Source: Syntrophaceae bacterium
Lineage (GTDB): Bacteria > Desulfobacterota > Syntrophia > Syntrophales > UBA5619
Length of the DNA: 64,000 nt
Assembly (NCBI GenBank): GCA_003141195.1
Contig: PLLC01000106.1
Coordinates: 2,745-66,744 of the forward strand
Reading direction: 5' to 3'
The first letter of the stretch is position 1; every line of letters begins with the position of its first letter. Below are positions 1,785 through 20,986 of this stretch, piece after piece. The translations under genes and the position numbers were made by a program. The notes beneath the pieces are model-generated. The model was not told the DNA's origin and made no database searches. It worked only from the letters and a program-made list of their open reading frames with translations.

Positions 1785-2087
1785 TTTTTATGTTGTCCCC
1801 TCGCTATTTTCAATTTTCCTTCTTCAGGATGTCATACGTTCCGATCCGGCGAAAGAGCACTCGTCCCGCCTCAATAGGAAATGATTGACGGGCAGCTTCG
1901 TCATAATTATGATATGTAAGTCCTAAAGGAATCGCCAAAGTGACCATCTGCGGCGACTGAATAAACGGATACCTGCTTGACATATTGTGGCACCATCGGC
2001 AAAACAGGCTGCAAAAGGAGAAAACAAACATCAACCTGTCGCGGCGGAAGAAGCCGGTCTACTCGACTTAAAAGACTGGAAGAACAC

Positions 2088-4956: not shown

Positions 4957-7900
4957 TCAATGGTTTTTTAAGCAGTTGTAATTGGTCGCCATCATATATT
5001 GATGGAAGCGATCTGCTCTGAGAAGAAAGGTTTCTAGCTTGGCGTTGATCAGCTGCGGGAAAGGTGAACCGTCGCTCTCTATGGCTAAAAACGGCAAATC
5101 GTCAATGTCGGTCAGAACTTCCTGCAGCTTTTGGTTTGTTGGATCGGTCGCCAGTTTCTTTCCTGCCGTCATAATTTCACCGAGAATGGCCTCCGAAATG
5201 CGATTCGGCATACAACCGAATGGCCCGATGGCGATGACCCCGCAGGAGTGAGTGACGACCTCTGAGAGGGCGCCGCCTACCGTGAGGATGGCCTCGCCGG
5301 GAAGGGCGAGCGAAATATACGGACTGGCATTTTTGATGATGCCGGCGATATCAAGCGCTTCGGCATGAACAAGCCCGGACTTGGAGAGTATCGACTTTAT
5401 CCGTTTCTCGTAATGTCTCTGGAAGAGATTTCGGATCTTGAGCTTGAATTTCTGAGCAATCGTCAAATGATCCAGATTGAACCCCCGATCCGTAAGGTAA
5501 TGGCAATAGTAAACCCACTCGGACACTGGTGCACAGACGGTGGCAAATCCTTTCTCGGCGAGGTATTCCGTCAGATACTGGCGGGAGAGGGCATCTCGGC
5601 GAACAAATATTTCACCGGTCAGCGTGATCACGGCCACACTGTGCACTGAACGCTTCAGCGGTATGGCGCTCAGGCGGTCGGCGCACTCGGACAGCTGTGC
5701 TGTCAGAATATCAAAGTTTCCCTTCTCCAGGGCCAGAAGAATCTTCCGCCATTCATCAGAGTAGATGGCCCCGGCGGCAATGGGATCGACGCTGTTTGCA
5801 AGAAGCATCGAACGGATGTCCTCCATGACATCGGAAACAACCACCGCCCACCAGGCATGACGTTCGAAATGCTTGTCCATGCCCGAATAGGAATTATCCG
5901 AGGACAGCGAAAGCAGCGCCACATCAGGTATTCCCAGTCTCCGGATCAAGTCCTCCATGTAAACTGCGTACTGGCCGAAGCGGCAGGGACCGGCGCCGGT
6001 CGGCATGAAGTAAACCAGAATCTCGCCCTTACGTCTGCCGTTGTTGATGTAGCTCAACAGGGTTCCGGTGGTCAGGATCAACGGCAAGCATTCCTTGCAG
6101 GAGGTGTTTGCCCGACCGAGCTTGAGGATGGCTTTGTCGTTTTCTCGCAGAGCCCTGGCATTACACCCGCACCCCCTTAAAGTCGCGGCAAACGCCTCTG
6201 TTCCGAACTTTCCCATCGAAGGGATGAGTATTTCCACCCGCGGGTCGGTCAGGGCCAATGTCTTTCCCGACGACGTGACGACTCTGGTCGAGCCGTTTTC
6301 GAGAATCACCCGGGCGGGGTTGAACGTGCGCTGTCGCGGTGAGATCAGCCGCCTTGCCATCAGTTGACGGTAGCTCCGGACGATATCAAGAAAAGCCTCC
6401 ACCCTGGTCTCGATGCCGGCATCGGCGGTGTGGCTGTCAAGCTCCAAGGTAAGGGAGGGCTTACGTCCCATGATATCGCGAAAGTAGCTGATGATAAAAG
6501 AATCCGGTCCGCAGGAAAAATTGGTGATATAGGCGCCAAAGAGCTGAGGGTGCTTTTCCACAAAACATGCAGCCTTAAGTATAAGATCTCCCATGCCCCA
6601 GTACATGTGTCTTTTTGAGCGCTCCTGTTCCAGATCGAGGAAATCGATGGGAATCACGGGAATTCCCCGGGTGGCGAATTTGTGAGGGATGCCCATGTGA
6701 GCTTCCCCGGTAAATCCGTTGTACGGTCGTGCGAAGATGACAACCCCAAATTTATCCGGATCCGATTCGAGCTCAGAGAGCATTCGCCTGCCTGTTTCTT
6801 TCATATTTAAGAAACAGTCTCGCTGCTTCTGCAGGGCAACGGCGAAGGCCTCTCGCGCCGCCCGGCGGCCGACTCCCATATGGCGCGCTGTTCCTATTAA
6901 AGGTTCTTCAGCGCTCTCAATCCCGCCGGATAAGTCTAAGAGCGGCGTTAAGAGTCGGGCGCCTCCTCCGATGAGTTGACCGAGTTTTCCGCTAAAGGCG
7001 GTCTGAAGGTAGAAAGTCTCCCCCTGCACCAGGGGGCATACCTGGGACTGGGAACTGCTGCCTTCATTCTGGCCTGGGATGGCTTTGAAGTGGGGCAGAA
7101 ACAGAAAATCCGGGGGATTTTCACTCTCAAGGAGCGAACAGATGAACCCGTGAGCCAGTTCTACCGGGTAACAGAAAGGCGCGCCGCACTGATCAATGCC
7201 TTCCTGACTGGGGTGATCGGGCAGAACGACGTCAAAACCCAGTTCGTTGAAAAAATTGGAGTATAGCGGATAATAGGTGTTGACGAGAAAGCTGCGGTTG
7301 AGCCCCACCCGGCCTTTATAGGATCGAACTTTCTCCTTATCCGGCGGTGCGCCATATGTTTGAAAGATAAGCTTCTGGCGGATCCGCACCAGATCGAGTC
7401 TCTCCGTGTCGTAGTGCACGTTCCGGCGGATGTTGTAATAGCGATTGCAGGCGCCTCCGAACGGGTATTTTTGTCCCTCCACCTGGATGACGGCGATCGG
7501 GCACCGCCGATCGCACTTTTCCTTCCCGCCCCGGCAGGTGAATGTCTTTCCGTAAGCGACCTCCCGTCGGGCAAGGGTTTCGAGATCGAAGGGCTTCGCC
7601 GCCATGAGACCCTCTTCAATCCGTTTCTGGACTTCCAGGGCGACGCCGAACGCGCCCATCAACCCGGGTTCCGGCGGGACGATGATCGGTTTGCCGATCA
7701 ACGCCCCCATCGCCAGCGGTACCGCGCTGTTATAGCATACTCCGCCTTGCATGAAGATTTTTTCCCCGACCGGCCGGTTGCCTTTGACGCGGTTGGAGTA
7801 GTTCATGCAGATCGAGTATACCAGTCCGGAAGCGATGTCCTCGCGGGCCACCCCTTCGTGGATCGCGTTCTTGATATCCGAGCCGATAAAAGCAGCGCAC

Positions 7901-9336
7901 TGGTCGTTGAAGTTGGGCGGACGCTTCCCTCGGAAGGCCGTCTCAGCAATATCATCCATTTTCAACCCCAACGTCTCGTGGGCCGATTCTTCCAGGAATG
8001 AGCCGGTGCCCGCCGAACACGCTTCGTTCATGGCGTAGTCGGAGGGGACAGAATTGATGATATAGGTGTATTTGGCGTCCTGGCCGCCGATTTCAAAAAT
8101 GGTGTCCACCTGGGGATCAAAATAGACGGCGGCCGTGGCGTGGGCAACGATCTCGTTGATGACCCCTTCCGTGAGGGCGTGCAGCCCCGCAATCTGCCTG
8201 CCCGAGCCGCAGACGCCCAAGCCTTCGATGCGGATCGCTTGCGGATCGACCTTCTGCCGGACCTGCTCGAAAAGCGAGCGATAGCATTGGCGGGAGGCGC
8301 CCACCGGATCTCCGTTAGTGCGCAAATATACGGAAACCAAAAGGGCATGGTCCGATCGGCGCACGAGCACGGCTTTTGTGGTGGTGGAGCCGACATCGAG
8401 ACCCAGAACGCAGGCATCCCCAGGCCGGATGGTATCCCGTTCCATCGTTTTGAACTCAACCTGGCCGGCGAAATCAGTCAGTGGCGGCAGGCTGTCGAAG
8501 GAGGTTGCTCTCGTGACAAAGAGCTCGGCAAACCCTGGAAAACGAGCGGTTTCATGGGACAGACCCCATAGGGCAGCCCCCAGGGCTTCCAGATAGGATG
8601 CCGTCTCCGGCACGACCAGGCCGGGGATCTCCTGGCGGAGGTATTCGATCATCATGCGGTTCTGGGCCGCACCGCCGATGATCATGATGTTGCGCCGCTC
8701 CACCTTTTTCAACAGCTCCAGGATCTTGTCGGCCATCATTTTACACAGGCCGGCGGTCACCTGCGGCTTGGGAATACCCTTGTTGGTGGCATGGGTGCAG
8801 TCCGACTTGCAAAACACCGAGCAGCGGCCCGACACGTGATATGGTGTCTCCACTCCCGCCCATTGCGCAGCCTCCTCCAAGCTCACATTCATGCGGCGCA
8901 ACTGCTGCAAAAAAAACTCGCCGGTCCCGGAGGCGCACTTGTTGCCGGTGACCACGTTTGTGATGCGTCCCGACCGATTCAGCACATACACCATGAAAGT
9001 TTCGCCGCCGGCTGATACGATGGCTGGGCAGTCGATATCGGGTGGCTTAACGAAGGCGTAGGCACACTCCACCGCCTCCGGTTCCGGGATGGACGTTAAA
9101 TTGACGAACCGTCGGAACTTGCGGCCGGTGGCGGTAATCCGATCGAAGAACTGTATATCCACGCCTTTGAGAGCCTGAACCAGGCAGCGTTTGGGATCGC
9201 CCTCATGAGCCTGAAGGGAATGGGCGCTAATGTGTGGTGAAAGCACCCGATTGTCTTCCAGTTCCTGCTCCACTTGAACGAGAGAAATAGTCGATGCCCC
9301 TAAGCACAGACCAAGCGACTTCAGTTTGACGGCCAT
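4957..9336 (-). CDS. Acyl-CoA dehydratase activase-related fusion protein (two BadF/BadG/BcrA/BcrD-type ATPase modules plus a DUF2229/HgdB-like C-terminal region)
   Basis: ORF 4957..9345 (GTG); first ATG at 9336. Module 1: LGLCLGASTISLV...GNKCASGTGEFF...GRCSVFCKSD. Module 2: LGLDVGSTTTKAVLV...EIGGQDAKY...NEACSAGTGSFLEE...NDQCAAFIGSD. Then a Cys-rich linker (TCRGGKEKCDRRCPI...GGACNRYYN) and a long dehydratase-subunit-like tail. Confidence 0.85.
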   Translation of the reverse strand: MAVKLKSLGLCLGASTISLVQVEQELEDNRVLSPHISAHSLQAHEGDPKRCLVQALKGVDIQFFDRITATGRKFRRFVNLTSIPEPEAVECAYAFVKPPDIDCPAIVSAGGETFMVYVLNRSGRITNVVTGNKCASGTGEFFLQQLRRMNVSLEEAAQWAGVETPYHVSGRCSVFCKSDCTHATNKGIPKPQVTAGLCKMMADKILELLKKVERRNIMIIGGAAQNRMMIEYLRQEIPGLVVPETASYLEALGAALWGLSHETARFPGFAELFVTRATSFDSLPPLTDFAGQVEFKTMERDTIRPGDACVLGLDVGSTTTKAVLVRRSDHALLVSVYLRTNGDPVGASRQCYRSLFEQVRQKVDPQAIRIEGLGVCGSGRQIAGLHALTEGVINEIVAHATAAVYFDPQVDTIFEIGGQDAKYTYIINSVPSDYAMNEACSAGTGSFLEESAHETLGLKMDDIAETAFRGKRPPNFNDQCAAFIGSDIKNAIHEGVAREDIASGLVYSICMNYSNRVKGNRPVGEKIFMQGGVCYNSAVPLAMGALIGKPIIVPPEPGLMGAFGVALEVQKRIEEGLMAAKPFDLETLARREVAYGKTFTCRGGKEKCDRRCPIAVIQVEGQKYPFGGACNRYYNIRRNVHYDTERLDLVRIRQKLIFQTYGAPPDKEKVRSYKGRVGLNRSFLVNTYYPLYSNFFNELGFDVVLPDHPSQEGIDQCGAPFCYPVELAHGFICSLLESENPPDFLFLPHFKAIPGQNEGSSSQSQVCPLVQGETFYLQTAFSGKLGQLIGGGARLLTPLLDLSGGIESAEEPLIGTARHMGVGRRAAREAFAVALQKQRDCFLNMKETGRRMLSELESDPDKFGVVIFARPYNGFTGEAHMGIPHKFATRGIPVIPIDFLDLEQERSKRHMYWGMGDLILKAACFVEKHPQLFGAYITNFSCGPDSFIISYFRDIMGRKPSLTLELDSHTADAGIETRVEAFLDIVRSYRQLMARRLISPRQRTFNPARVILENGSTRVVTSSGKTLALTDPRVEILIPSMGKFGTEAFAATLRGCGCNARALRENDKAILKLGRANTSCKECLPLILTTGTLLSYINNGRRKGEILVYFMPTGAGPCRFGQYAVYMEDLIRRLGIPDVALLSLSSDNSYSGMDKHFERHAWWAVVVSDVMEDIRSMLLANSVDPIAAGAIYSDEWRKILLALEKGNFDILTAQLSECADRLSAIPLKRSVHSVAVITLTGEIFVRRDALSRQYLTEYLAEKGFATVCAPVSEWVYYCHYLTDRGFNLDHLTIAQKFKLKIRNLFQRHYEKRIKSILSKSGLVHAEALDIAGIIKNASPYISLALPGEAILTVGGALSEVVTHSCGVIAIGPFGCMPNRISEAILGEIMTAGKKLATDPTNQKLQEVLTDIDDLPFLAIESDGSPFPQLINAKLETFLLRADRFHQYMMATNYNCLKNH

Positions 9337-9665
9337 GGATAACACCTTTTGCCAGAGCGGGCACTTAAAAAACTGTCTTAGATAAATTCTATCAGAAATT
9401 TGTTCCTTACGGGAAGTTTTATTGTCTCGGCAACTAATGAGATTTTTGGTTGGTAATCGTTACACGCAGGCGAGATCAAGGGCGTAAACCCTCTTCCCGA
9501 ATTCGTTAATTGACAGATTGTGATAAGTATTGCTAAAAGAGCGCATGATTACAACCTGAAAGTGATGCTGCTTGCTATCGGGCTTTGATCTCATCCTTTT
9601 TCACGAAGTACGCATCAACCGGATGAACCAGTTTTTTGAACCACCCGAAGAAAGGAGACCGGAAC

Positions 9666-10538
9666 ATGATTATTGATTGCCATTATCACCTGGAGGAGAG
9701 GCTTCTCAGCCGGGAGGAGCTCCTGCAACGGATGGACGAAGCCGGTGTAGAGAAGGCGGCGCTCATGGGAGCGATGGTGGACCCTTTCCCGGAACCGGCC
9801 CGTCCGCTGATCGGACTTCTCCAGATCCTCATCACCCACCGGTCGCTTCGCGCCATTGGGCGGCTGATGATCGACAGTTTCACGAAGGAGGGCGACGTTA
9901 AACTCCCGCTCGGTGTTTTCCGGATCGAACCCGATCCCGACAACGATGCCGTCTTCGTAGCCGTACGGGGCTGCCCGCAGCGATTTGCCGGCTGGGTTTT
10001 CGTCAACCCCCGCGGGCGGCGCGACCCTGTCCGGGAAATGGAGCGGTGGCAAAACGAACCCGGTTTCGTGGGGGCGAAGGCCCATCCCTTCTGGCACCGG
10101 TATCCGCCGGAGGAGCTCGCACCCGTCGCCCGTCTCCTCTCCTCCCTCGGCAAGCCGCTCCTGATCCATGCCGGGTTTGGTTCCCACGGCGATTATGAGG
10201 CCCTTCTGCGGCAGGTCCCCGACCTCACGCTGATCCTCGCCCATGGCGCCTTTCCGCTGTTTTCCGACGCATGGCCGGCAATCCGCGAGCGGAAGAATAT
10301 CTTCGTGGACCTCTCCCAGTCGACCTACCTCGGTGACAGGACGACCCGGGAGGCGGTTGCCTTCCTCGGCCCGGAACGCTGCCTTTTCGGCACGGACGGC
10401 CCCTTCGGTTTCCCGGCCGCCGACGGCAAGTTCGATTACGGCTTCCTCAAGCGGCGGATCGAGCGTCTCTTCCCGGATCCGGGCATGCGGCGGCGGCTAC
10501 TGGGCGAAAATTTCGCCGACCTCTCCGGAATCGGCTGA
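9666..10538 (+). CDS. Amidohydrolase-2 family metal-dependent hydrolase (TIM barrel)
   Basis: ORF 9636..10538 (TTG), trimmed to the ATG at 9666 with GAAAGGAG upstream. MIIDCHYHLEE..., GFVGAKAHPFWH, PLLIHAGFG, LILAHGAFP, CLFGTDGPFG metal-ligand pattern. Confidence 0.8.
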   Translation: MIIDCHYHLEERLLSREELLQRMDEAGVEKAALMGAMVDPFPEPARPLIGLLQILITHRSLRAIGRLMIDSFTKEGDVKLPLGVFRIEPDPDNDAVFVAVRGCPQRFAGWVFVNPRGRRDPVREMERWQNEPGFVGAKAHPFWHRYPPEELAPVARLLSSLGKPLLIHAGFGSHGDYEALLRQVPDLTLILAHGAFPLFSDAWPAIRERKNIFVDLSQSTYLGDRTTREAVAFLGPERCLFGTDGPFGFPAADGKFDYGFLKRRIERLFPDPGMRRRLLGENFADLSGIG

Positions 10539-10570: not shown

Positions 10571-11233
10571 TCATCCGGTGCAGTCAGCGGAAATGAGGGT
10601 AGCGGGATCGAAGGCGAAGGCCGCAAATCGGCCGTCGTGGCTGAGGCTGACCTCTGCGGCGAGCAGGTCTCCGCGGAAAAGGACGCGGGGAGCGCCGAGA
10701 CCGTCGGGGTTTTTGACGACGGACAGATCGCCAACAGGACAATCGAGACGGCGCGCGATCTCCCGGAGGAGCGCCCCCCGGACGAAGGCCGAGGGATTTA
10801 CGTCGCTCCCCGTCCCTTCTCGTAGCTCCACGTGCTGACAGATCCTCTCGATATCTTCCTCCGATCCCGCCGCCAGCGCATGAACCCAGTCTGCCGTTAG
10901 GGCGATCCGGAGCACCAGTTCTCCCCCGGGGGTGATCACTTTCCCTGCGAGACGGGCGGCTGTTCCCGCCGCATTCCCCGTATCCAGAACCACACGGTAT
11001 TGCCGGGGGATCGAACAGACCGCCGGATCAGCGCGGCTGACGGCCTTGTAGGCCGCCTCCTTCGCCGCCCAGAACGCCCAGAGGAGCCCGTCGGGTCGCG
11101 CCGCCCCGGCAATGATAGCCCGTTCCTCCGCGGTGAAGACGCGGCCGCAGAAGCGGCTGTCCCCGCTCTTGTCGAGGTTGCCGGGCGCCGCGAGATCGAC
11201 GACGTCGTTACCCACGGGAGGCAAAGCAGGCAT
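10571..11233 (-). CDS. 4'-phosphopantetheinyl transferase
   Basis: ORF 10571..11287, trimmed to the ATG at 11233 (GGAGG upstream). Motifs VGNDVVDL, FTAEERA, WAAKEAAYKA, SLSHDGRFAAFAF. Confidence 0.8.
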   Translation of the reverse strand: MPALPPVGNDVVDLAAPGNLDKSGDSRFCGRVFTAEERAIIAGAARPDGLLWAFWAAKEAAYKAVSRADPAVCSIPRQYRVVLDTGNAAGTAARLAGKVITPGGELVLRIALTADWVHALAAGSEEDIERICQHVELREGTGSDVNPSAFVRGALLREIARRLDCPVGDLSVVKNPDGLGAPRVLFRGDLLAAEVSLSHDGRFAAFAFDPATLISADCTG

Positions 11234-11948
11234 CCTCCAATGCAGCGAGCCGTTCCACGATCCGCCGCGCATATTCCCGCTGGACACGGAGTCCCCCGCC
11301 GTTCGCCCTTCCCGGATCGAAGACCTCCGCGGTTATCGTGAACCGTTCCCCGAACCGGGGCATCGTCCCGTAGGTCTCCTGCCCGTCGCCCCGGAGATAG
11401 ACGAGCATCACCCGGCAACGGTTGCATTTGTCGATGAAGCGGCCGACGCCGTAGGAGAAGTTCTCCCGGTTTACCCGCCCCGAATGCGACCTCCCCCCTT
11501 CCGAAAAAATCATCAGCCCCTGCCCCCAATCCAGAACCCGGCAGCACTTTTCGAGGAGCCGATGGAGCCCTTCGCGGCTTCCGCCCCGGTCGACTGGCAG
11601 GCACTTCAGCAAATAGCACAGGAGGGCGATGAAGGGGTTCTGCTGAAAATTCTTCCGTTCCGGCAGGTTCCAGGGAACCCGCCGGAAATGGAGGATATGA
11701 TCCGCCAGGGAAGCCATCCCATAGCTGATCACGAACGAATCGATCAGGGTCAAGTGGTTCGGGCAGACAAGCCAAGGCCCCTCGTGCTCCCGGTACATGC
11801 GCTTGACTTCGTTCCGGATCCGCTTCAGGTCGCGGATGCGATAGCCCATCAGGCGGACGAAGAGGAAGCAGAGCGGTGCCGTCGCGAGGACGGCGATTCG
11901 CCCCAGAACGTACTGCAACCCGAGAAGAAAACGCTCCCGCTTTTCCAT
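11208..11948 (-). CDS. PlsC/LPLAT-family acyltransferase (1-acyl-sn-glycerol-3-phosphate acyltransferase-like)
   Basis: ORF 11208..12056, trimmed to the ATG at 11948 (MEKRERFLLG...). HX4D motif CPNHLTLIDS, then LMIFSEGGRSHSG. N-terminal hydrophobic segment. 26-nt overlap with the PPTase start. Confidence 0.8.
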   Translation of the reverse strand: MEKRERFLLGLQYVLGRIAVLATAPLCFLFVRLMGYRIRDLKRIRNEVKRMYREHEGPWLVCPNHLTLIDSFVISYGMASLADHILHFRRVPWNLPERKNFQQNPFIALLCYLLKCLPVDRGGSREGLHRLLEKCCRVLDWGQGLMIFSEGGRSHSGRVNRENFSYGVGRFIDKCNRCRVMLVYLRGDGQETYGTMPRFGERFTITAEVFDPGRANGGGLRVQREYARRIVERLAALEDACFASRG

Positions 11949-11956
11949 GACCGGCT

Positions 11957-12205
11957 TTACGCCGCCTTCTGCTGGATCAGAAGTACCGCGTCCCCGATCG
12001 TCGCGATCCGATCGGCCTCGTCGTCGTCGATCATGGTCCCGAACACGTCCTCGCACTTGATGATGATGTCCACGAGCCTCGCCGAATTGACCCGCAGGTC
12101 CTTGAGGATGTGGGTTTTGGGCGTCGCCTTCTCCAGAAGGGCCGAATCCTTCACGTACCCCCGCAGGATGTCGATGATCTTCTTCGTAATCTGTTCTTCA
12201 CTCAT
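11957..12205 (-). CDS. Acyl carrier protein (dedicated, divergent)
   Basis: 82 aa. Phosphopantetheine-attachment region KDLRVNSARLVDIIIKCEDVFG (Ser in the helix-2 DSL-equivalent position). Acidic small protein between the KS and the acyltransferase. Confidence 0.8.
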   Translation of the reverse strand: MSEEQITKKIIDILRGYVKDSALLEKATPKTHILKDLRVNSARLVDIIIKCEDVFGTMIDDDEADRIATIGDAVLLIQQKAA

Positions 12206-12245
12206 GATCTTTCCTCTCTCTTTCTGTTTGTTGAAAAAGTCCCAT

Positions 12246-13523
12246 TCATGGTTCCCATTTTCTGAAAATAAGACAGCTGTTCACATCGCCGAAGCCGAAG
12301 CCGGCCTTGGCCACGACCTTGAGATCCGGACAGGCTACGGCGGAATGAGGGATCCTCCGTTCGTAGGGGGCGATCTCCGGATGGAGATCCCCGCAGTTCA
12401 GCGACGGATGTACAAATCCGTCCCGGAGCTGCAGGACGACGGCCACGCATTCGATTGCGCCGGCCGCCCCCAGGCAGTGTCCGATCATCGACTTGGTCGA
12501 GTTGATCCAGGGAAAATCTTCCGGACCCCGCTCCAGGGCGGCCGACCAGTTCTTCACCTCTATCGGATCGGCGTAGGTTGCCGTCAGGTGGCCGTTGATG
12601 GCGTCGATCTCGCGAGGCGAAATCCCCGCGTCGGCCACGGCCCCGCGGATGCACCGCTTCACCCCCTCCGGGTTCGGCGCGGTGATGGTGCCCCCCATCC
12701 GGTGGCCGCCGCAGTTCACCATCCCGCCCAGCACCTCGGCGTAGATCCGCGCTCCCCGCGACCGGACCGATCCCAATTCCTCCAGGAGAAGGAACGCCCC
12801 GCCCGCACCGGGGACAAAACCGGCGGCGGTCGCGCTCATCGGCCGGGAGGCCTCTTCCGGCCGGTCGTTGAACTTCCGGCAGATCACTCGCATCGCATCA
12901 AAACCGGCCCAGATGTAAGGCGAGGCCCCCTCCGAGCCGCCCGCCAGCATCCGGGTGGCCAGTCCGAGCCGGATGCGCGCCACCGCTTCAATGACTGCCT
13001 CGTTTCCGGTGCTGCACGCCGAGGAATTCGAAGTCACCTGGTTTCCCAGGGCCAGCAGTCCCGCGACCCGCGCGCTCGTCCCGCTGTTCATCACCTGCTC
13101 GACGATCCTGCTCCCCATACGCCGGACCTTCCCTTCGTTCACCATCGGAACCACTGTCCGGGCGATCGTGTCCATCCCGCCGATCCCTGAGCCGGCGATT
13201 ACCCCGGTCTCCCAATCCACGCGGTCGTCTTCGGCCTCGGGGACGGCGAAACCCGCATCGGTCCAGGCATCCACGGCCGCCACGGAGGCATAGCCGATGT
13301 TGTCGTTGAGCGACAGGAGCTTCTCATGATCGAAATAGCGCTGCCGTATCGCATCGAATCCCTCCGGAACGCCCCCGACCTGGCAGCCGAAGTTCAACGC
13401 CGCCAATTCCGGAATATGACGGATACCCGAACGCCCTTCCCGCAGGGCCTGTGCGAATACATCCAGTCCGTGGCCGTTCGGTGCGACCACCCCCATCCCC
13501 GTAACGACGACCCTGCGTTTCAT
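12246..13523 (-). CDS. Beta-ketoacyl-ACP synthase (FabF/KAS II-like)
   Basis: 425 aa. VVVTGMGVVAPNG, active-site Cys SSACSTGNEA, His motifs NGHLTATYADP and TKSMIGHCLGAAGAIE. Confidence 0.9.
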   Translation of the reverse strand: MKRRVVVTGMGVVAPNGHGLDVFAQALREGRSGIRHIPELAALNFGCQVGGVPEGFDAIRQRYFDHEKLLSLNDNIGYASVAAVDAWTDAGFAVPEAEDDRVDWETGVIAGSGIGGMDTIARTVVPMVNEGKVRRMGSRIVEQVMNSGTSARVAGLLALGNQVTSNSSACSTGNEAVIEAVARIRLGLATRMLAGGSEGASPYIWAGFDAMRVICRKFNDRPEEASRPMSATAAGFVPGAGGAFLLLEELGSVRSRGARIYAEVLGGMVNCGGHRMGGTITAPNPEGVKRCIRGAVADAGISPREIDAINGHLTATYADPIEVKNWSAALERGPEDFPWINSTKSMIGHCLGAAGAIECVAVVLQLRDGFVHPSLNCGDLHPEIAPYERRIPHSAVACPDLKVVAKAGFGFGDVNSCLIFRKWEP

Positions 13524-14062
13524 AATCTTGTCTCCTCTTTGACCCGCCCCGCGAGGATCGGCGCGGGACCCCGTTCCTTCTGTTCCATAAACTTTTCCAA
13601 CGGGACCCCTTTCCCCGCAAGGATGCCGGAACAGACCTCCTCGCCGTCCGGCCGCGTCATGATGCAGTTGACCTTGAGCTGATTTCCGCGGAAATAAACC
13701 TTCCGTCCCGTAACCCGGACGAACTCGCCGGGGCAGACCACGCCGCTGAACTCCACCTTTTCCATGAGCGTAAACAACGTGACGGGATCCTCGATCTTCT
13801 TCTCCCCCTCCCTTCGGAGCAGGTTCAGGTAGAGGCCGAAGGCCACGACGCCCGTCTGGGCCATCGTCTCGATCAGAATGACCCCCGGCGTGATGGGAAG
13901 GCCCGGAAAATGGCCCGGGTAGAAATATTCATCGCTGCGGAAGCGGTAGACGCCGACGACGTGTTCCTCGTCCAGTTCCAGGATCTCCTCGATGAACCGG
14001 AAAGGGTGCCGCTGGGGTACCATCTCCAGAATCCGCCCCCGCAGGATGCGATCAGCCTCCAT
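13520..14062 (-). CDS. FabZ-like 3-hydroxyacyl-ACP dehydratase (hotdog fold)
   Basis: ORF 13520..14074. I prefer the ATG at 14062 (GGAGG 5 nt upstream). PQRHPFRFIEEI...YFYPGHFPGLPITPGVILIETMAQ. The stop overlaps the KS start (ATGA). Confidence 0.85.
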   Translation of the reverse strand: MEADRILRGRILEMVPQRHPFRFIEEILELDEEHVVGVYRFRSDEYFYPGHFPGLPITPGVILIETMAQTGVVAFGLYLNLLRREGEKKIEDPVTLFTLMEKVEFSGVVCPGEFVRVTGRKVYFRGNQLKVNCIMTRPDGEEVCSGILAGKGVPLEKFMEQKERGPAPILAGRVKEETRL

Positions 14063-14780
14063 ACAGTCCTCCATTCACATGAATCACCGTTCCGGTAATG
14101 TACGAGCCCGCCGTGGCCAGAAAACCGACCATCTGCGCAACCTCCTCGGGCCGCCCCATCCGGCCGAGGGGAATCCGGTCGAGGATGCCCGCCCGGACCC
14201 CTTCGGGCAGGCGGGAGGTCATCTCCGTTGCGATGAACCCGGGGGCGACCGAATTGACCAGGATGTTCCGACCCCGGAGCTCGGCAGCCAGCGATTTCGT
14301 CAGCGCGTCCATCGCTGCCTTTTCCATTGCGTAGGGAATCTGGCCGGCGTTCCCCGTATGGCCGACGACGCTCGAAATGTTGATGATCCGGCCGCTATCC
14401 GCGCGGAGCATGTATTGCCTGAGGACGCGCTTCGTCAGGTACCAGGTGCCCCGCAGCAGGGTGCGCTGCATGTCGAACTGTTCGATCCGCATCCGCTGCA
14501 TGTCGGCGTCGATTGCGACCCCGGCGTTGTTCACGAGGACGTCGAGGCGATCCGTCTGCGCCTTCAGCCGTTCCATCAAGGCATCCACCTGATCGATTGT
14601 GGCCAGGTCCGCCGGAAGGAGGAATCCGTCGCCGATCTCCGCAAGCAGGGAAACCGCGGCCGCCGCGCTCGTCCGGTAGTGGATCCCTACGCGAAAACCC
14701 TTCGCCGCCAGCTCCCGCACGCAGGCCGCCCCGATCCCCGTTGCGCCTCCCGTCACCAAAGCCACCTTCTTTTCACTCAT
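14052..14780 (-). CDS. 3-oxoacyl-ACP reductase (FabG-like SDR)
   Basis: ORF 14052..15404, trimmed to the ATG at 14780 (MSEKKVALVTGGATGIGAA...). NNAG, catalytic S...YxxxK (ISSVVGHTGNAGQIPYAMEKAA), PGFIATEM. Confidence 0.9.
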   Translation of the reverse strand: MSEKKVALVTGGATGIGAACVRELAAKGFRVGIHYRTSAAAAVSLLAEIGDGFLLPADLATIDQVDALMERLKAQTDRLDVLVNNAGVAIDADMQRMRIEQFDMQRTLLRGTWYLTKRVLRQYMLRADSGRIINISSVVGHTGNAGQIPYAMEKAAMDALTKSLAAELRGRNILVNSVAPGFIATEMTSRLPEGVRAGILDRIPLGRMGRPEEVAQMVGFLATAGSYITGTVIHVNGGLYGG

Positions 14781-14806
14781 TGAGCAACTCCCTTTTGCTC
14801 TCTCCC

Positions 14807-14831
14807 GGGGACAGATTTCAAATCTGTCCCC
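14807..14831. repeat. 25-nt palindromic element GGGGACAGATTTCAAATCTGTCCCC (copy 3), intra-operonic
   Basis: Identical to copy 1. Lies in the 53-nt gap between the FabA-like stop (14834) and the FabG-like start (14780). Confidence 0.9.
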
Positions 14832-14833
14832 CA

Positions 14834-15427
14834 CTATTTTCGATCCATCCGACCGCCGACGGCGTTCGCCGACCGACGGGGGTAGTCCGGATAGGCGATT
14901 CCCTGAAAGACGCCCGTCCGCGCCCCATGGATCTCGGCGATCTCCCCGCCGTCGACGGAGACCCGCCCCTCGCCGACGACGAGGCTCGCTCCCGATTCCT
15001 TGAGATGGGTAAAGCGCCGCACCTTGATCTCGTAGCGCACGAGCCGGTTGAAGGGCCGGATCTGGCCGCTGAAGACCACCTCGCTGCAACCGAGCGCCCG
15101 GCCGGAACCGAGCGCCCCCCGCCAGACGCAAAAGAAACCGAGAAGCTGCCAGATGGCGTCCACGCAGAGGCAGCCGGGCTGGACCGGATCGCCGGGCATG
15201 TGGCACTGGAAGTACCAGGCATCGAGGCGAATATCCTGCTCGGCCGTGATCCTCCCCTGACGGCCATCCCTCCGGATTTCGAGGATCCGGTCCGCCATCA
15301 AAAAAGGCGGCGCCGGCAAGCGGGCCACAAAGCCTCCCGGGGGGTCTTCCACCAGGGTCCCGTAGGCAAATGCGATGAGCTCCTCCTGTCCGAAATGGGA
15401 ACACTCCTGAAACTCTTCGTAGGTCAT
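14834..15427 (-). CDS. FabA-type 3-hydroxyacyl-ACP dehydratase (possible dehydratase/isomerase)
   Basis: ORF 14834..16141, trimmed to the ATG at 15427 (MTYEEFQE...). FabA signature LPAPPFLMADRI...DAWYFQCHMPGDPVQPGCLCVDAIWQLLGF...GRALG..EVVFSGQIRP. Confidence 0.85.
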   Translation of the reverse strand: MTYEEFQECSHFGQEELIAFAYGTLVEDPPGGFVARLPAPPFLMADRILEIRRDGRQGRITAEQDIRLDAWYFQCHMPGDPVQPGCLCVDAIWQLLGFFCVWRGALGSGRALGCSEVVFSGQIRPFNRLVRYEIKVRRFTHLKESGASLVVGEGRVSVDGGEIAEIHGARTGVFQGIAYPDYPRRSANAVGGRMDRK

Positions 15428-16434
15428 GACGCCCTCCGATTTTCTTCGACGGCGAGAAGCAGATGAACCCACGTCAGGCCGGCGCCTACGAGGCAAATGG
15501 CCACGCGGTCGCCGGGAGACAGCTCTTCCCAGTGCCGACTCAGAACCGCGGGCGCTCCGGCGCAGCCCGTATTCCCTAATTCGTCCACGTTGTACCAGTG
15601 CTGCTCCTCCGGGATCGCCGCCCGTTCGCAGACGGTCCTGAGGGCCATCAGGTTCGCCTGGTGGCCGATGAAACGGAACCGCTCGCCATTGCCATTGCCG
15701 TTGCCCGGAACGGACATGAGGCAACGGACGGACTCCGTCATCCGGCGGATGGCGAACCCCTGGACGGCATGGCCGTCCTGACGGAAATGGCCCATCGGGG
15801 GAATATTCACCTTCTCCCAGGCCGAGGCGTTCGTCCCGCAACGGGATACCACAAAGGCCGCCCGCGCCTTCACCGAGGCCGAAACGATGGCGGCGGCGCT
15901 CCCGTCGCCGAACAGAACGGCTGTGGAGCGGTCGCTGAAGTCGATAGCGCGGGTGATATTCTCCGGCTGGACGATGAGTACGTATGGGGGAAGTCGGTCC
16001 GCCGCCATCCGGCTGAGCAGATCGATCTGCATCCCGAAGCTCGTGCAGGCCGAATTCACGTCGAGACAGGGGGCGTCGATCCCCAGTTCCGCCGCCACCG
16101 TGGCCGCCTCCGCCGGCGTCGAGCAGGAGGGGGCGCAGCAACCCGAGATGACAAGGCCGATGTCGTCAGGTCTGAGGCCCGCCCGGTCGAGGGCCATCCG
16201 CGCCGCGGCCGCAGCGGTCTCGGCGTTCCGGTAGAGGCTCGCCTCATGGGCCGCACGCGGATCGTGGTTCTTCGTCCGGCGGATATAATCCAGGGAGAGG
16301 ACCGTCCGTCGCTCGCGGATCCCCACGCGTTCGAGGATCCAGGCCTCGTCGGTCCCGATCCCGAGCTCCTCCAGAAACCGGTTTGTGATGACGTTCTCCG
16401 GATGAAAATGGCCGATGCCGTGCAGGTAGAGCAT
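15424..16434 (-). CDS. 3-oxoacyl-ACP synthase III (FabH-like initiating KS)
   Basis: ORF 15424..16710, trimmed to the ATG at 16434 (MLYLHGIGHFHPEN...). Cys-His-Asn triad contexts DVNSACTSFG, FIGHQANLMAL, ELGNTGCAGAP. ATGA overlaps at both ends. Confidence 0.85.
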   Translation of the reverse strand: MLYLHGIGHFHPENVITNRFLEELGIGTDEAWILERVGIRERRTVLSLDYIRRTKNHDPRAAHEASLYRNAETAAAAARMALDRAGLRPDDIGLVISGCCAPSCSTPAEAATVAAELGIDAPCLDVNSACTSFGMQIDLLSRMAADRLPPYVLIVQPENITRAIDFSDRSTAVLFGDGSAAAIVSASVKARAAFVVSRCGTNASAWEKVNIPPMGHFRQDGHAVQGFAIRRMTESVRCLMSVPGNGNGNGERFRFIGHQANLMALRTVCERAAIPEEQHWYNVDELGNTGCAGAPAVLSRHWEELSPGDRVAICLVGAGLTWVHLLLAVEENRRAS

Positions 16435-17633
16435 CAGACCAACTCCCGGCCGATGATCATGTTCTGGACCTCGCGGACCCCTTCGTAGATGTCGATAATC
16501 TGGGCGTCCCGGATGAGCTTCGAGATCTCGTATTCCGAGATGAAGCCGTATCCGCCGTGGAGGTGCAACCCCTCCGTCGCGCAGAAGACGGCCGCCTCTG
16601 CGGCCAGATTCTTGGCGAGCGAGGCGTAAACGCCCCGATCGGGCGCCCCCTTCTGGACCAGGAAGGCCGCCTTCATCAGGGCCATCTCCGCCAGTTCGAC
16701 CCGTTTCCACATGGCAACCAAGGTCTCCCGCGCGACGGGCATGTCGCAGATCCGCTGGCCGAACTGGCGGCGCTCCCGCGTGTAGGCCAGGGTGAGGTCC
16801 AGTGCGCGCCGGGCGAGACCGACGCCGATCGCGGCCACCATGGGACGCGCGTAGTCGAGGACGTCGGTGAGGTACTGGAAGCCGAGCCGCCGGTCGCCGA
16901 TGATCTGATCGTTGCTGATCTCAACGTCCTCGAAGGTGACGGTCGCCGTATTGGAGAGGCGCTGTCCCAACTTGTCCTCCGGCTTTCCCGTCACGATCCG
17001 CCCCCCGCATGGAAGCGGGATCTCCCGGCAGGCCTGGGAGCCGGCCTCCGCCGTATCCGGTTCCACGGCCAGCGCGGGGACGACGACGCAGGCGATGAAG
17101 GGCGAAGAGGGTTTGCCGACCTTGCAAAAGACGGTAAACTGTGAGGCAAACGAGGCGTTCGTGATGAAGCATTTCGCTCCGTTGAGCAGGTATTTCCCGT
17201 CCTTTCCTTTCCGAATGGCGGTCATCATGGCGGAGTTGTCTGAACCCGCCCCCGGTTCCGTAAGGCAGAAAGAGGCCAGGAGCGGCCGCTCCACGAAGGG
17301 AACTAAGAAGGACTGTTGCTGCGCCTCCGTACCGTGCATGGCGATCACGGCATTGGCCAGATCATTGCACATGGCCGACGTGGCAATGCCGCTGTCCCCG
17401 TACGAAAGCTCCCGAATGATCAGGGCCGTCGAGATAAGGTCGAGGCTGTAACCCTTGACGGTCTCCGGGATGGAGAGGTTCAGGATGCCGAGGTCCCAGG
17501 CCTTCCGGATGATGTCAAAGGGGAAGGCGTGGCCCTTCTCCAGGGTCATGACACGGGGTGTGATCTCCCGGCCGACGAAACGGCGGACGGTTTCCAGGTA
17601 TTGTTTCTGCTCTTCGCTCAGATTGAAATCCAT
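16434..17633 (-). CDS. Acyl-CoA (or acyl-ACP) dehydrogenase family flavoprotein
   Basis: ORF 16434..18293, trimmed to the ATG at 17633 (MDFNLSEEQKQYLETVRRF...). CLTEPGAGSD, FITNA, RRQFGQ, IYEGVREVQ (catalytic Glu context). Carries an insertion ~VVPALAVEPDTAEAGSQACREIPLPCGG. Confidence 0.85.
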   Translation of the reverse strand: MDFNLSEEQKQYLETVRRFVGREITPRVMTLEKGHAFPFDIIRKAWDLGILNLSIPETVKGYSLDLISTALIIRELSYGDSGIATSAMCNDLANAVIAMHGTEAQQQSFLVPFVERPLLASFCLTEPGAGSDNSAMMTAIRKGKDGKYLLNGAKCFITNASFASQFTVFCKVGKPSSPFIACVVVPALAVEPDTAEAGSQACREIPLPCGGRIVTGKPEDKLGQRLSNTATVTFEDVEISNDQIIGDRRLGFQYLTDVLDYARPMVAAIGVGLARRALDLTLAYTRERRQFGQRICDMPVARETLVAMWKRVELAEMALMKAAFLVQKGAPDRGVYASLAKNLAAEAAVFCATEGLHLHGGYGFISEYEISKLIRDAQIIDIYEGVREVQNMIIGRELV

Positions 17634-17726
17634 GAGAAAACGCCTCGCTCCATTGCCTTTTTCTGTCCCCCGCGCGGGCCGCGGACGTAACAATCCGGTG
17701 CCGCACCGGCCGGTTGCACGGTAATG

Positions 17727-17742
17727 AGCATCAACCGTGCCA
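17727..17742 (-). promoter_or_regulatory. Sigma-54 (-24/-12) promoter candidate for the ACAD/FAS-like operon
   Basis: The reverse strand reads TGGCACGGTTGATGCT. The GG and GC doublets are separated by 10 nt as in TGGCAC-N5-TTGC. It lies 94 nt upstream of the ACAD ATG (17633). An inverted repeat TGCGTAAC-N22-GTTACGCA at 17854-17891 sits about 110-150 bp further upstream. Confidence 0.6.
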
Positions 17743-17943
17743 CAACATTGGATGGGACCGTAGATACCCCAAAAGCACAACCGGGACGGACCGTTGGCGT
17801 TGAACGACGCCGCTTTCGGGAGGGGCTTCCGCCCCGTAGATACGGCCTCCGGGTGCGTAACAACCGGTCGGAGTGCGAAGCCCGTTACGCAGCGCCGCTC
17901 ACCCTTCTTGACTTCCCGACGGGGATTACGGTATGCGTTCCCT

Positions 17944-19437
17944 ATGGAAATTTTCATGCTGACGGCGGTGGGCATCACGGTGTCCGTCGCCCTGATGATC
18001 AATAAGAAGCGGGAGCCACTGCACCTCTCCTTCGCCGCCCTCTGCCTGGCCATCGCCTTCCACAAGGGGGGCGTCTTCTTCAACCCGTTCTTCCATTCCG
18101 GCGCCTGGCTTCTCGTCGAAGGTCTGGGGCTCCTTGCCATCCCCCCCCTCACGATCAAGTTCAGCCGGGACTTCTGTGAGGAGCAGACCCTGCTCCGGAA
18201 GCGGGACGTCCGCAACACGCTCCTGTTCAGCACCGGGTTCGCCGCGGTCCTCTTCACCCCCGTCGCGGGCTGGAAGTACCTGGGGACGTTCATGTACCTC
18301 TACGCGGACGCGGTTTTGCTCCTGTGCTATCTCTCCCTGATTGCCTATGCAAAAAAGAAAGCGGCGGGCGCGGAAAAGAAGCGCATCGTCTACCTCATCA
18401 TCGCCTGCACCGCGGCCATCGCCACCTACAGCATCCCGCCCCTGTTCAACCTGGTCGTCGCCGGCATGCTCTATTTCATCCTGATCATGATCACCCACCC
18501 CCATCTGACGGAGCTCCACGACATCATGACCCGTGCCTTGGTGATCCTGGTCGTCACCCTCTTCACGACCATCGTCTTCTACCTCGTCATCGGCTTCTTC
18601 GGAAAGGGGCCCGCGCCGCCGTTCACGCTCGTCTTCATGGTCTCCTTCCTCATCGTCATCGCCATCGGACCGTTCCAGGTTATCCTGAAACGGCTGCTCA
18701 CGACAATTTACCCCGAGATCAAGGACGTCTTCACCTCGCCCTATGACCTGGACGAGAAGTTGGAGAGGGAAAAGGCGCTCCTTCTGGAGAAGATGGCCCC
18801 CGTCCTCGCCCACGAGATCCGGAACCCCCTCGGTTCGATCAAGGGGGCCGCCCAGGTCCTCCGTTCGGAGGTGGAGGGAGAGGAGCAGCGGAAACTTCTC
18901 GACGTGATCACCGAGGAGGTGAACCGCCTGAACCGGGTTGTCTCGCAGTTTCTCGATTACGCCCGGCCCTACGCGCCGGAGCTCCGCCCGCGACCGATCA
19001 ACGCGGTCATCGAAAAGGCCATGGCCCTCATCGAGGCGGACAGAATTTCGGCCCGTATCCATATCCAGTTGGAGCTCCATCCTCATCTGCCGCCGGTCCC
19101 CATGGATCAGGAACAGATTCACCAGGTGATTCTGAACATCGCCCTCAACGCGATCGAGGCGATGCCGGAGGGCGGCATGCTGACCATCCGGACGTCGCGG
19201 ATCGAAAGCGACGCCGGCGACGCGGTGGGCATTTCCATCCGGGATACGGGTCTGGGAATTCGCCGCGAGGCGCTCAAACAGATCTTCACCCCCTTCTTCA
19301 CGACCAAGGAGCGGGGGGTCGGGCTGGGGCTGGCCGTCTGCCAGCGGATCATCCGGAACCACGGCGGGCGGATCCGGGTGAAGTCGATCCCCGGCCAGGG
19401 GACGATCTTCTACATCCGCCTCGAAACGGTGCGGTAG
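17944..19437 (+). CDS. Sensor histidine kinase with polytopic membrane N-terminal domain
   Basis: ORF 17794..19437, trimmed to the ATG at 17944 (MEIFMLTAVGITVSVAL...). About 7 hydrophobic segments with no large periplasmic loop. H-box LAHEIRNPLGSIKG; ATPase boxes NIALNAIEAM, IRDTGLGI, GVGLGLAVC. Confidence 0.85.
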   Translation: MEIFMLTAVGITVSVALMINKKREPLHLSFAALCLAIAFHKGGVFFNPFFHSGAWLLVEGLGLLAIPPLTIKFSRDFCEEQTLLRKRDVRNTLLFSTGFAAVLFTPVAGWKYLGTFMYLYADAVLLLCYLSLIAYAKKKAAGAEKKRIVYLIIACTAAIATYSIPPLFNLVVAGMLYFILIMITHPHLTELHDIMTRALVILVVTLFTTIVFYLVIGFFGKGPAPPFTLVFMVSFLIVIAIGPFQVILKRLLTTIYPEIKDVFTSPYDLDEKLEREKALLLEKMAPVLAHEIRNPLGSIKGAAQVLRSEVEGEEQRKLLDVITEEVNRLNRVVSQFLDYARPYAPELRPRPINAVIEKAMALIEADRISARIHIQLELHPHLPPVPMDQEQIHQVILNIALNAIEAMPEGGMLTIRTSRIESDAGDAVGISIRDTGLGIRREALKQIFTPFFTTKERGVGLGLAVCQRIIRNHGGRIRVKSIPGQGTIFYIRLETVR

Positions 19438-19481: not shown

Positions 19482-19506
19482 GGGGACAGATTTGAAATCT
19501 GTCCCC
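19482..19506. repeat. 25-nt palindromic element GGGGACAGATTTGAAATCTGTCCCC (copy 4; central base G instead of C)
   Basis: Lies between the HK stop (19437) and the RR start. Followed by a partial extra half-copy, aaatctgttagagctgtccc (19507-19526). Confidence 0.9.
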
Positions 19507-19558: not shown

Positions 19559-20986
19559 ATGGAAATCGCGCGGGAACGAAAGAAAAAGAACGGCACCGGC
19601 ATGAAGGCGGCGAAGATCCTCGTTGTGGACGACGAGCTGAATATGCGATTGGTCCTCAAAGCCATGCTGAAAAAGGAGGGTTATGAGGTGGTCACGGCCG
19701 CGGACGGCCTGGAGGCCCTGAAGATCCTCCGGGAGGAGAAGATCGCCGCCGTCGCCACGGACCTCAAGATGCCGGGGCTCGACGGCATGGGTCTCCTCGA
19801 CCGGATCATGCAGGACGATCCCTCCCTGCCCGTCATCATTCTCACCGCCCATGGCACCGTGGCAAACGCCGTAGACGCCCTGAAGAAGGGGGCCTTCGAT
19901 TACCTCACCAAACCCTTCGAACAGGATGAACTCAAGACGGTCATCCTGAAGGCGGTCAAGACCCGGCAACTCGGCGACCGCGACCTCTCGGCGGCGGCTG
20001 GCGATGCCGATCCCGACCGAATCGTCGGGGAGAGCTGCCGCATGGCCGAGATTCATGAGATCGTCCGGAAGGTCTCCCCCGCGATGACTACCGTACTCAT
20101 CACAGGGGAGACGGGGACGGGCAAGGAGCTGATCGCCCGCGCCATCCACCGGCACAGCGCCCGGAAAGAACAGCCCTTCATCAAGATCAACTGCGCCGCC
20201 ATTGCGGAGAACCTCGTGGAAAGCGAGCTCTTCGGATACGAAAAGGGGGCTTTCACCGGCGCCGTTGCCGCGAAACCGGGGAAGTTCGAGCTGGCCCACC
20301 GGGGAACCCTCTTCCTGGACGAGGTCGGGGAGATCCCGCGGGACATGCAGGCGAAGCTCCTCCAGGCAATCCAGGACCAGAGCTTCGAACGCGTCGGCGG
20401 CCTGAAGACGATCTCGGTGGATGTGCGTCTGATCGCCGCCACGAACCGAAATCTCGTGCAGGAGGTTCGGGAGGGAAAATTCCGTGAGGACTTCTTCTAC
20501 CGCCTGAACGTCTTCCCCATACAGGTCCCGGCGCTCCGGGAGCGGCCCGAGGACATTCTTCCCCTGGCGGACCATTTTCTCACGAAGTTCAACCGGAAGC
20601 TGGGCAGGCAGGTCAATGGTCTCGATCCGGAGGTCCGGGACTGCCTCCTCGCCTACCCTTGGCCGGGGAACATCCGGGAGCTGGAACACCTCATCGAACG
20701 GATGGTTCTGATGGCGGAGGAACCCCTCCTTACGATGGCGCTCGTCCCACCGGAGGTCGCGCAGGCCGCGCGGGAACCCCGCCCGGCAACGTCAGCTCTT
20801 GCGGAAACGTCCGGACGCGACGCGCTGAGAAGCCACATGGAGGAGATGGAAAAACAGATTATCGCCCGCTGCATCGAGGAGTGCGACGGCAACGTCACAC
20901 GAGCGGCCGAGCGGCTGGGGCTGAGCAGGAAGGGCCTCCAGCTCAAGATGATCAAGCACCGACTCCGGAAGCGGGAAGAGGGATAA
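19559..20986 (+). CDS. Sigma-54-dependent response regulator (NtrC family bEBP)
   Basis: Receiver domain (ILVVDDE...TDLKMPGLDG...LTKPF). AAA+ domain with Walker A GETGTGKE and the sigma-54 contact loop GAFTGA (YEKGAFTGAV). C-terminal HTH (NVTRAAERLGLSRKGLQLKM). Alternative start at ATG 19601 (MKAAKILVVDD). Confidence 0.9.
   Translation: MEIARERKKKNGTGMKAAKILVVDDELNMRLVLKAMLKKEGYEVVTAADGLEALKILREEKIAAVATDLKMPGLDGMGLLDRIMQDDPSLPVIILTAHGTVANAVDALKKGAFDYLTKPFEQDELKTVILKAVKTRQLGDRDLSAAAGDADPDRIVGESCRMAEIHEIVRKVSPAMTTVLITGETGTGKELIARAIHRHSARKEQPFIKINCAAIAENLVESELFGYEKGAFTGAVAAKPGKFELAHRGTLFLDEVGEIPRDMQAKLLQAIQDQSFERVGGLKTISVDVRLIAATNRNLVQEVREGKFREDFFYRLNVFPIQVPALRERPEDILPLADHFLTKFNRKLGRQVNGLDPEVRDCLLAYPWPGNIRELEHLIERMVLMAEEPLLTMALVPPEVAQAAREPRPATSALAETSGRDALRSHMEEMEKQIIARCIEECDGNVTRAAERLGLSRKGLQLKMIKHRLRKREEG

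Follow-up and report, generated by a model that had tools for sequence, protein, structure and literature searches.

A putative sigma-54 enhancer-promoter region joining a two-component system to a lipid-synthesis operon in Syntrophales

In the NtrB/NtrC-glnAp2 system a -24/-12 promoter is served by two dyad-symmetric sites located more than 100 bp upstream, and activation proceeds through DNA looping and ATP hydrolysis. In Bacillus subtilis, the membrane-sensing kinase of the DesK/DesR pair controls a lipid-modifying gene. The sigma-54 promoter of atoDAEB is preceded by two inverted sites of 20 bp to which the response regulator AtoC binds (PMC3118216), and a comparative proposal holds that sigma-54 governs the synthesis of the cell exterior, lipids included (PMC3162934). 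In the literature, nothing specific was found on sigma-54 control of fabA-type operons or on the kinase/regulator-operon system described here.

That system lies in a stretch of DNA of 64,000 nucleotides that was analysed as a whole (the window), where a 310-bp divergent region separates a lipid operon from the genes of a sensor histidine kinase and a response regulator. Sequence and comparison with related loci show a promoter element, palindromes upstream of it, a fixed spacing between the two and their genetic linkage with the kinase/regulator pair. The region would be a standard enhancer-dependent sigma-54 control region, with the adjacent regulator acting at the palindromes and the lipid operon as its target, a reading to which we assign a probability of about 0.8.

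The -24/-12 promoter of the lipid operon

Related loci were collected by two scans. With the full-length kinase alignment, generic kinase motifs dominated the search of a genome collection and four orthologues only were obtained; with the kinase sensor domain alone, a metagenome collection gave 70 loci of 96-38% identity. Kinase and regulator genes are adjacent in all related loci where DNA was available, and in most of them an operon of conserved gene order (ACAD-KASIII-FabA-FabG) is divergent from the pair.

At 17742->17727 of the minus strand the window contains TGGCACGGTTGATGCT, which has one mismatch to TGGCAC-N5-TTGCW and is the sole match with at most one mismatch in the 64 kb. Its GG (17740-17741) and GC (17728-17729) doublets are exactly 10 bp apart, and the -12 element is ATGCT instead of the consensus TTGCW. 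The element begins 109 nt and ends 94 nt before the ATG (17633) of the first minus-strand gene, which encodes an acyl-CoA dehydrogenase (ACAD). Taken alone the sequence is not above chance, since chance would give 1.16 matches with at most one mismatch when both strands of 64 kb are counted, and one or more were present in 69 of 100 shuffles; the significance of the promoter, as that of the enhancer, comes from conservation in orthologous loci. The family form, TGGCAY-N6-TGCT, occurs once in the window against 0.13 expected.

About 40 orthologous Syntrophales loci were compared, and TGGCA[CT]-N6-TGCT proved to be conserved in front of the first gene of the operon and in operon orientation. Of the 43 loci that could be used (ACAD identity 98% to 63%), 33 have it in ACAD orientation no more than 400 nt ahead of the ACAD start. 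The orthologous promoters begin 48-169 nt before the ACAD ATG, with GG and GC invariant and the spacer bases variable. Nine of the ten loci lacking an ACAD-proximal promoter have a FabD-type malonyl transacylase gene preceding ACAD, and in all nine the promoter is located upstream of FabD, at -1066 to -1213; in the tenth, L002, an orthologous ACAD is lacking (25% identity). Hence the promoter tracks the first gene of the operon, being upstream of FabD wherever FabD comes first. The initial annotation had proposed a -24/-12 promoter at this position with correct GG/GC spacing, and had suggested a check of conservation in orthologous intergenic regions; the element is present as described, and both it and the palindrome discussed below are conserved across some 40 Syntrophales loci. 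We consider TGGCACGGTTGATGCT to be a genuine sigma-54 promoter of the lipid operon, predicted to be enhancer-dependent. Separately, it was observed that the FabD-type malonyl-CoA:ACP transacylase leading the operon in L098-L100, L106, L112, L115, L001, L147 and L148 is missing from the operon of the window.

Among the 50 ORFs of the window that were scanned neither rpoN nor any sigma-54 domain was found; the presence of rpoN in the source genome is implied by the intact GAFTGA activator. A generic sigma-70/terminator scan of 17400-18200 gave no sigma-70-like promoter in the spacer, the same scan missing the kinase promoter, and its terminator-like matches were all within the kinase gene.

A transcription start near 17716, expected in the initial annotation as well, is consistent with the geometry of the promoter and is predicted from it, a sigma-54 start lying about 12 nt downstream of the GC; the operon mRNA would then have a 5' leader of 17634..17716 (minus strand). 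Structured RNA, a riboswitch or a terminator in the region or leader was considered and rejected: there is no Rfam match at E <= 1 in 17300-18300, the leader folds no better than its shuffles (z = +0.98), and neither its length nor its sequence is conserved in relatives. Likewise discarded, as not conserved in close relatives, were a ACGTAACAA copy in the leader (D2) and an inverted repeat over the -24 element (I2). A direct repeat, CCGTAGATAC, had also been pointed out at ~17759 and ~17835. Its two plus-strand copies (17758..17767 and 17834..17843) are indeed exact, but it is already altered in relatives of 96-98% identity, copy 2 reading CCGCAGATAC in L081 and L086, and a direct repeat of at least 10 bp appears in 7% of shuffles of the 310-bp spacer. 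It is judged non-functional, and is probably a chance feature of the sequence.

Tandem palindromes at a fixed distance

When 22 diverged upstream regions, anchored beforehand on the promoter, were aligned with MAFFT, only two blocks were at least 90% conserved, the -24/-12 element and a palindrome about 110-150 nt upstream of it; the DNA outside them was otherwise unalignable. The consensus of the upstream block is an 18-bp palindrome, TGCGTA-N6-T[TA]C[GA]CA(C). In the window this candidate enhancer site (site 1, 17874..17891) reads TGCGTA-ACGGGC-TTCGCA on the minus strand. Among 25 distinct sequences its arms vary little or not at all, positions 1-6 and 13-19 being shared by 18-25 of them and nine of these thirteen positions by 24-25, and spacer positions 8-12 are free to vary. 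Conserved arms around a free spacer are what would be expected for a dimeric helix-turn-helix protein. The pattern TGCGTA-N6-TWCRCA is found at one place in the window, 17874-17891, where it matches both strands, against 0.30 matches expected. In L119 the spacer of site 1 is 1 nt shorter (TGCGTAGCAGCTTCGCA), with all other elements kept.

A second candidate site (site 2, 17854..17871) abuts the first, in a register 19-20 bp beyond it. Its promoter-proximal arm is kept (TACGCA on the minus strand, that is TGCGTA on the plus strand at 17854-17859), and its other arm, at 17866-17871, is degenerate in the window lineage. All loci have the arm nearer the promoter, TAC[GA]C[AG], at offset 31-33, and both arms are intact in L001, L002, L145/146 and L150. 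The expectation that enhancer sites would lie some 110-150 bp upstream is borne out by these two abutting, conserved 18-bp sites, 112-149 bp upstream of the -24 element; the dyad-symmetric sites of NtrC-family activators usually number two or more and lie some 80-200 bp before -24. The 8-bp inverted repeat pointed out there, TGCGTAAC (17854-17861) and GTTACGCA (17884-17891), is exact, with 22 nt between its arms, but does not stand as a functional unit: one of its arms is the outer arm of site 1, and the other is the arm that survives of site 2. When the 310-bp spacer is shuffled by dinucleotides, 33% of the shuffles contain an 8-bp inverted repeat with a gap of up to 60 nt, and the 8-bp length of the match is peculiar to the window sequence, the closest relatives having TGCGTAGC.

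Site 1 starts 149 nt away from the promoter TGGCA in the window, and 147-150 nt away in 29 of 39 loci. The remaining distances are 136-139 nt, approximately one helical turn less, 233-251 nt, or 128 nt in the case of L119, a poorly scored outlier. In L084, where ~87 bp are inserted between promoter and enhancer and the two are 236 nt apart, all other elements are in place. The fixed distance suggests that the geometry of the loop is constrained. An IHF site between enhancer and promoter is frequent, though not obligatory, in such systems; its consensus (WATCAR-N4-TTR, at most one mismatch) is absent from this interval in the window and is not enriched across the loci, with matches in 3 of 39 against 5.3 expected.

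The kinase/regulator pair and the probable binder of the palindromes

The sensor histidine kinase (17944..19437, plus strand) consists of ~270 amino acids of closely packed membrane helices, 7-9 in number and without a sizeable extramembrane sensor domain, followed by HisKA and HATPase_c; the names of its homologues place the organism in Syntrophales. The regulator (19559..20986, plus strand) matches Response_reg, Sigma54_activat (E = 1.9e-71) and HTH_8 in Pfam, and its translation contains GAFTGA, the Walker A motif GETGTGKE and the Walker B motif LFLDEVGE. The GAFTGA loop reported earlier for the adjacent response regulator can thus be read directly, and the protein has the domains of an NtrC-family activator (bacterial enhancer-binding protein), namely REC, AAA+ with GAFTGA and a C-terminal HTH. 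Its best NCBIfam similarities are to AtoC and NtrC. Assignment as an orthologue of AtoC, NtrC or ZraR was rejected, the scores being below the equivalog cut-offs (480 versus 714, 453 versus 559 and 402 versus 760, respectively).

Besides the divergent arrangement of the window, the related loci present the palindromes in other layouts. In L002, L145/146 and L150, where the vicinity contains no lipid operon, the tandem palindromes follow closely on the regulator gene and precede, by 144-148 nt, a TGGCAC-N6-TG[AT]A element ahead of a small unrelated gene. In L001, L147 and L148 they are located between two divergent sigma-54-type promoters, one directed to a FabD-led lipid operon and the other to a gene of the CFRYA[MP]P small-protein family. 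In distant loci the promoter of the kinase is 650-2000 bp away from the palindromes, and their spacing to the sigma-54 promoter is the same. The second sigma-54-like promoter of the relatives, which the same tandem enhancer would serve too, has a non-canonical -12 (TGGCAC-N6-TGTA or TGAA, without the C), and the small protein behind it, of 116-147 aa and ending in ...CFRYA[MP]P, is encoded by a gene absent from the window; this arrangement is found at 5344-5784 in L001, 3349-3784 in L147/L148, 7189-7840 in L146, 9384-9930 in L002 and 2641 in L150. Orthologues of the kinase/regulator pair in L095, L109, L111 and L142 have neither palindrome nor operon nearby. The linkage of the palindromes to the pair is frequent, not universal.

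As the sites follow the kinase/regulator pair through three locus layouts, the adjacent regulator is the most economical binder, and the connection between the regulator pair and the lipid operon that the initial annotation had drawn holds as genetic linkage. On these comparisons the operon promoter is most likely driven by the adjacent NtrC-type regulator. We infer the regulator as binder and a dependence on its phosphorylation, and the mechanism would then run as follows. Sigma-54 RNA polymerase would bind TGGCAC-N6-TGCT (17742->17727) to form a closed complex, from which the nine-gene, self-contained type II fatty-acid-synthase-like operon, ACAD to PPTase, would be transcribed starting near 17716. 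The polytopic membrane kinase would phosphorylate the adjacent regulator, whose dimers would bind the two abutting palindromes (TGCGTA-N6-TACGCA type, 17854-17891), 112-149 bp upstream of -24. The bound dimers would assemble an AAA+ ring and reach the promoter by DNA looping, and the GAFTGA loop, together with ATP hydrolysis, would open it.

The kinase gene has a promoter of its own, of sigma-70 type (17908..17937, plus strand), with -35 TTGACT at 17908-17913 and a weak -10 TATGCG at ~17932-17937. Loci both near and far in relationship keep the arrangement TTGACT-N17/18-TAT(CAT/GNN) upstream of the kinase. Between the end of the -10 and the ATG at 17944 there are 6 nt, and the window-lineage kinase has no Shine-Dalgarno sequence upstream of it, which together suggest that the kinase mRNA may be leaderless or near-leaderless in this lineage; in sister lineages the kinase leader is ~50 nt long and carries a GGAAGG Shine-Dalgarno sequence. 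Since the centre of site 1 precedes the kinase ATG and likely start by ~61 bp, autoregulation of the kinase is possible, and the palindromes might serve mainly to autoregulate the kinase/regulator operon through its sigma-70 promoter, their relation to the sigma-54 promoter being secondary. The arm of site 1 does end 16 nt before the -35 TTGACT in the window lineage, a distance kept in close relatives. Against such a primary role, the kinase promoter is 650-2000 bp from the palindromes in more distant loci, where the sigma-54 promoter is still ~149 nt away, and we regard it as improbable; a dual role of the palindromes in the window lineage, acting on the kinase promoter too, is possible.

Slightly less credible is a role of the palindrome as operator for a lipid-responsive repressor of the FabR/DesT type (TetR family) whose gene would be elsewhere in the genome, with the sigma-54 promoter activated through a different site or a different activator. 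Site 1 (TGCGTAACGGGCTTCGCA) and the Escherichia coli FabR motif AGCGTACACGTGTTCGCT, compared as the motif is quoted in PMC4273635 and not through a scored model, are the same at ten out of ten core arm positions and in spacing, and the operon has both a FabA above the FabA cut-off and a FabB/F-type synthase. However, the outer positions 1 and 18 are conserved as T/A here and are A/T in FabR. The sites are tandem, and site 1, instead of covering a -35/-10 or a start, is placed upstream of the promoter at a fixed distance of 149 bp; where a FabR operator would overlap a sigma-70 promoter, it stops 16 nt upstream of the kinase -35. Moreover, the palindromes follow the kinase/regulator pair into loci without fab genes, and no TetR-family (TetR_N) gene is present among the window ORFs scanned. 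That the -24/-12 match is a chance similarity and an unrecognised sigma-70-type promoter transcribes the operon is most improbable: about one such match is expected per 64 kb and the -12 element is imperfect, but the element is conserved across roughly 40 loci with a varying spacer and relocates with the first operon gene, and no sigma-70-like site was seen in 17400-18200.

The lipid operon and comparison with known systems

The operon placed under this putative control (10571..17633, minus strand) comprises nine tightly packed genes, delimited by Pfam and NCBIfam domains, gene junctions and an order kept in relatives; their names rest on these domains, FabA alone being above its curated equivalog cut-off. 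They are, in order of transcription, ACAD (16434-17633), KASIII (15424-16434), FabA (14834-15427), FabG (14052-14780), a FabZ-like hotdog protein (13520-14074), a KAS I/II, that is a FabB/F-type synthase (12246-13523), a divergent ACP-like protein (11957-12205), a PlsC-type acyltransferase (11208-11948) and a PPTase (10571-11233). The TGATG/ATGA gene junctions indicate a single transcription unit. The ACP-like protein is below every NCBIfam ACP cut-off and has no Pfam match at 1e-5; it carries NSA at the phosphopantetheine serine instead of the usual DSL of ACPs, and is paired with a dedicated PPTase.

Several other elements were observed in the window. A perfect 25-nt palindrome, GGGGACAGATTT-N-AAATCTGTCCCC, occupies intergenic spacers at 289-313, 14807-14831 and 19482-19506, with half or near copies at 1752-1763, 8044-8055 and 60346-60357 (9 matches against 0.43 expected). 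One of the perfect copies is located between FabA and FabG in the lipid operon (RNA hairpin z = -5.4) and another separates the kinase and regulator genes. The FabA/FabG spacer of relatives contains 0, 1, 2 or 3 copies, or other large palindromes, and the element looks like a small REP/MITE-like mobile element. At 1977-3206 (plus strand) a methyltransferase of the cyclopropane/mycolic-acid-synthase type adjoins an FAD_binding_4 oxidoreductase (3047-4600, plus strand), a pair that we take to resemble the two-enzyme route to 10-methyl branched fatty acids. A fusion of 1462 aa (4957-9345, minus strand), with two BcrAD_BadFG ATPase modules and DUF2229, is by its domains a putative activase of CoA-substrate radical enzymes; it lies ~1.2 kb past the end of the lipid operon, with a convergent amidohydrolase gene (9636-10538) in between.

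The value of these observations is in annotation and testable predictions: the mechanism is a textbook one, without a new principle, and the design is an ordinary regulatory one, here in an unstudied group of anaerobic bacteria and attached to a lineage-specific operon. For a two-component system that is uncharacterised and widespread in Syntrophales (Syntrophus/Smithella relatives) they supply a well-supported cis-regulatory map, made up of the promoter, two candidate activator sites, the fixed spacing of 149 bp and the promoter of the kinase gene, and they tie that system to a self-contained lipid-synthesis operon. The lipid-operon promoter is consistent with the proposal that sigma-54 governs the cell exterior (PMC3162934). 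A further, speculative and rather unlikely, reading is that the kinase would sense the state of the membrane or a lipid intermediate and, through sigma-54, switch on a FabA/FabB-type acyl-chain pathway having its own ACP, PPTase and acyltransferase. If true, syntrophic anaerobes would have in this system a sigma-54 counterpart of membrane homeostasis as known from DesK/DesR, and the identity of the enhancer with the FabR box in arms and spacing could go back to an old 'fab box' to which unrelated regulators bind.

The arrangement most resembles two systems of the NtrC type. As in AtoS/AtoC-atoDAEB of E. coli, a kinase and a REC-AAA+-HTH regulator are encoded beside a target operon concerned with acyl-CoA/fatty-acid chemistry, the site consists of two adjacent inverted units of ~20 bp upstream of a sigma-54 promoter (PMC3118216), and AtoC gives the best NCBIfam similarity of the window regulator, 480 bits. 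However, this score is below the cut-off of 714, so the regulator is not an AtoC orthologue; the half-site sequence differs, the polytopic membrane domain of the kinase is unrelated to the AtoS sensor, and atoDAEB serves short-chain fatty-acid catabolism, whereas the operon described here is biosynthetic and FAS-like. With NtrB/NtrC-glnAp2 the locus shares the promoter type and the paired distal dyad sites and, as a proposal, activation by looping and ATP. The sites differ in that they abut (19-20 bp register) instead of being ~32 bp apart as at glnAp2, are centred at ~-147 and ~-166 from the inferred start and have the half-site GCGTA instead of GCAC; the signal would be unrelated to nitrogen.

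The other two resemblances are partial. The FabR operator of E. coli fabA/fabB is also an 18-bp palindrome and shares, by coincidence or convergence, the arm cores and their spacing (GCGTA-N6-TTCGC), and there is a FabA in the operon downstream; FabR, though, belongs to the TetR family and represses from a site that overlaps a sigma-70 promoter, whereas the site in the window is distal, tandem and tied to sigma-54 and an NtrC-type regulator. Finally, as in DesK, the kinase sensor is made essentially of transmembrane helices alone and its gene is beside a lipid-pathway target, whereas DesR, a regulator of the NarL type, acts at a sigma-A promoter and has no sequence relationship to the system of the window.
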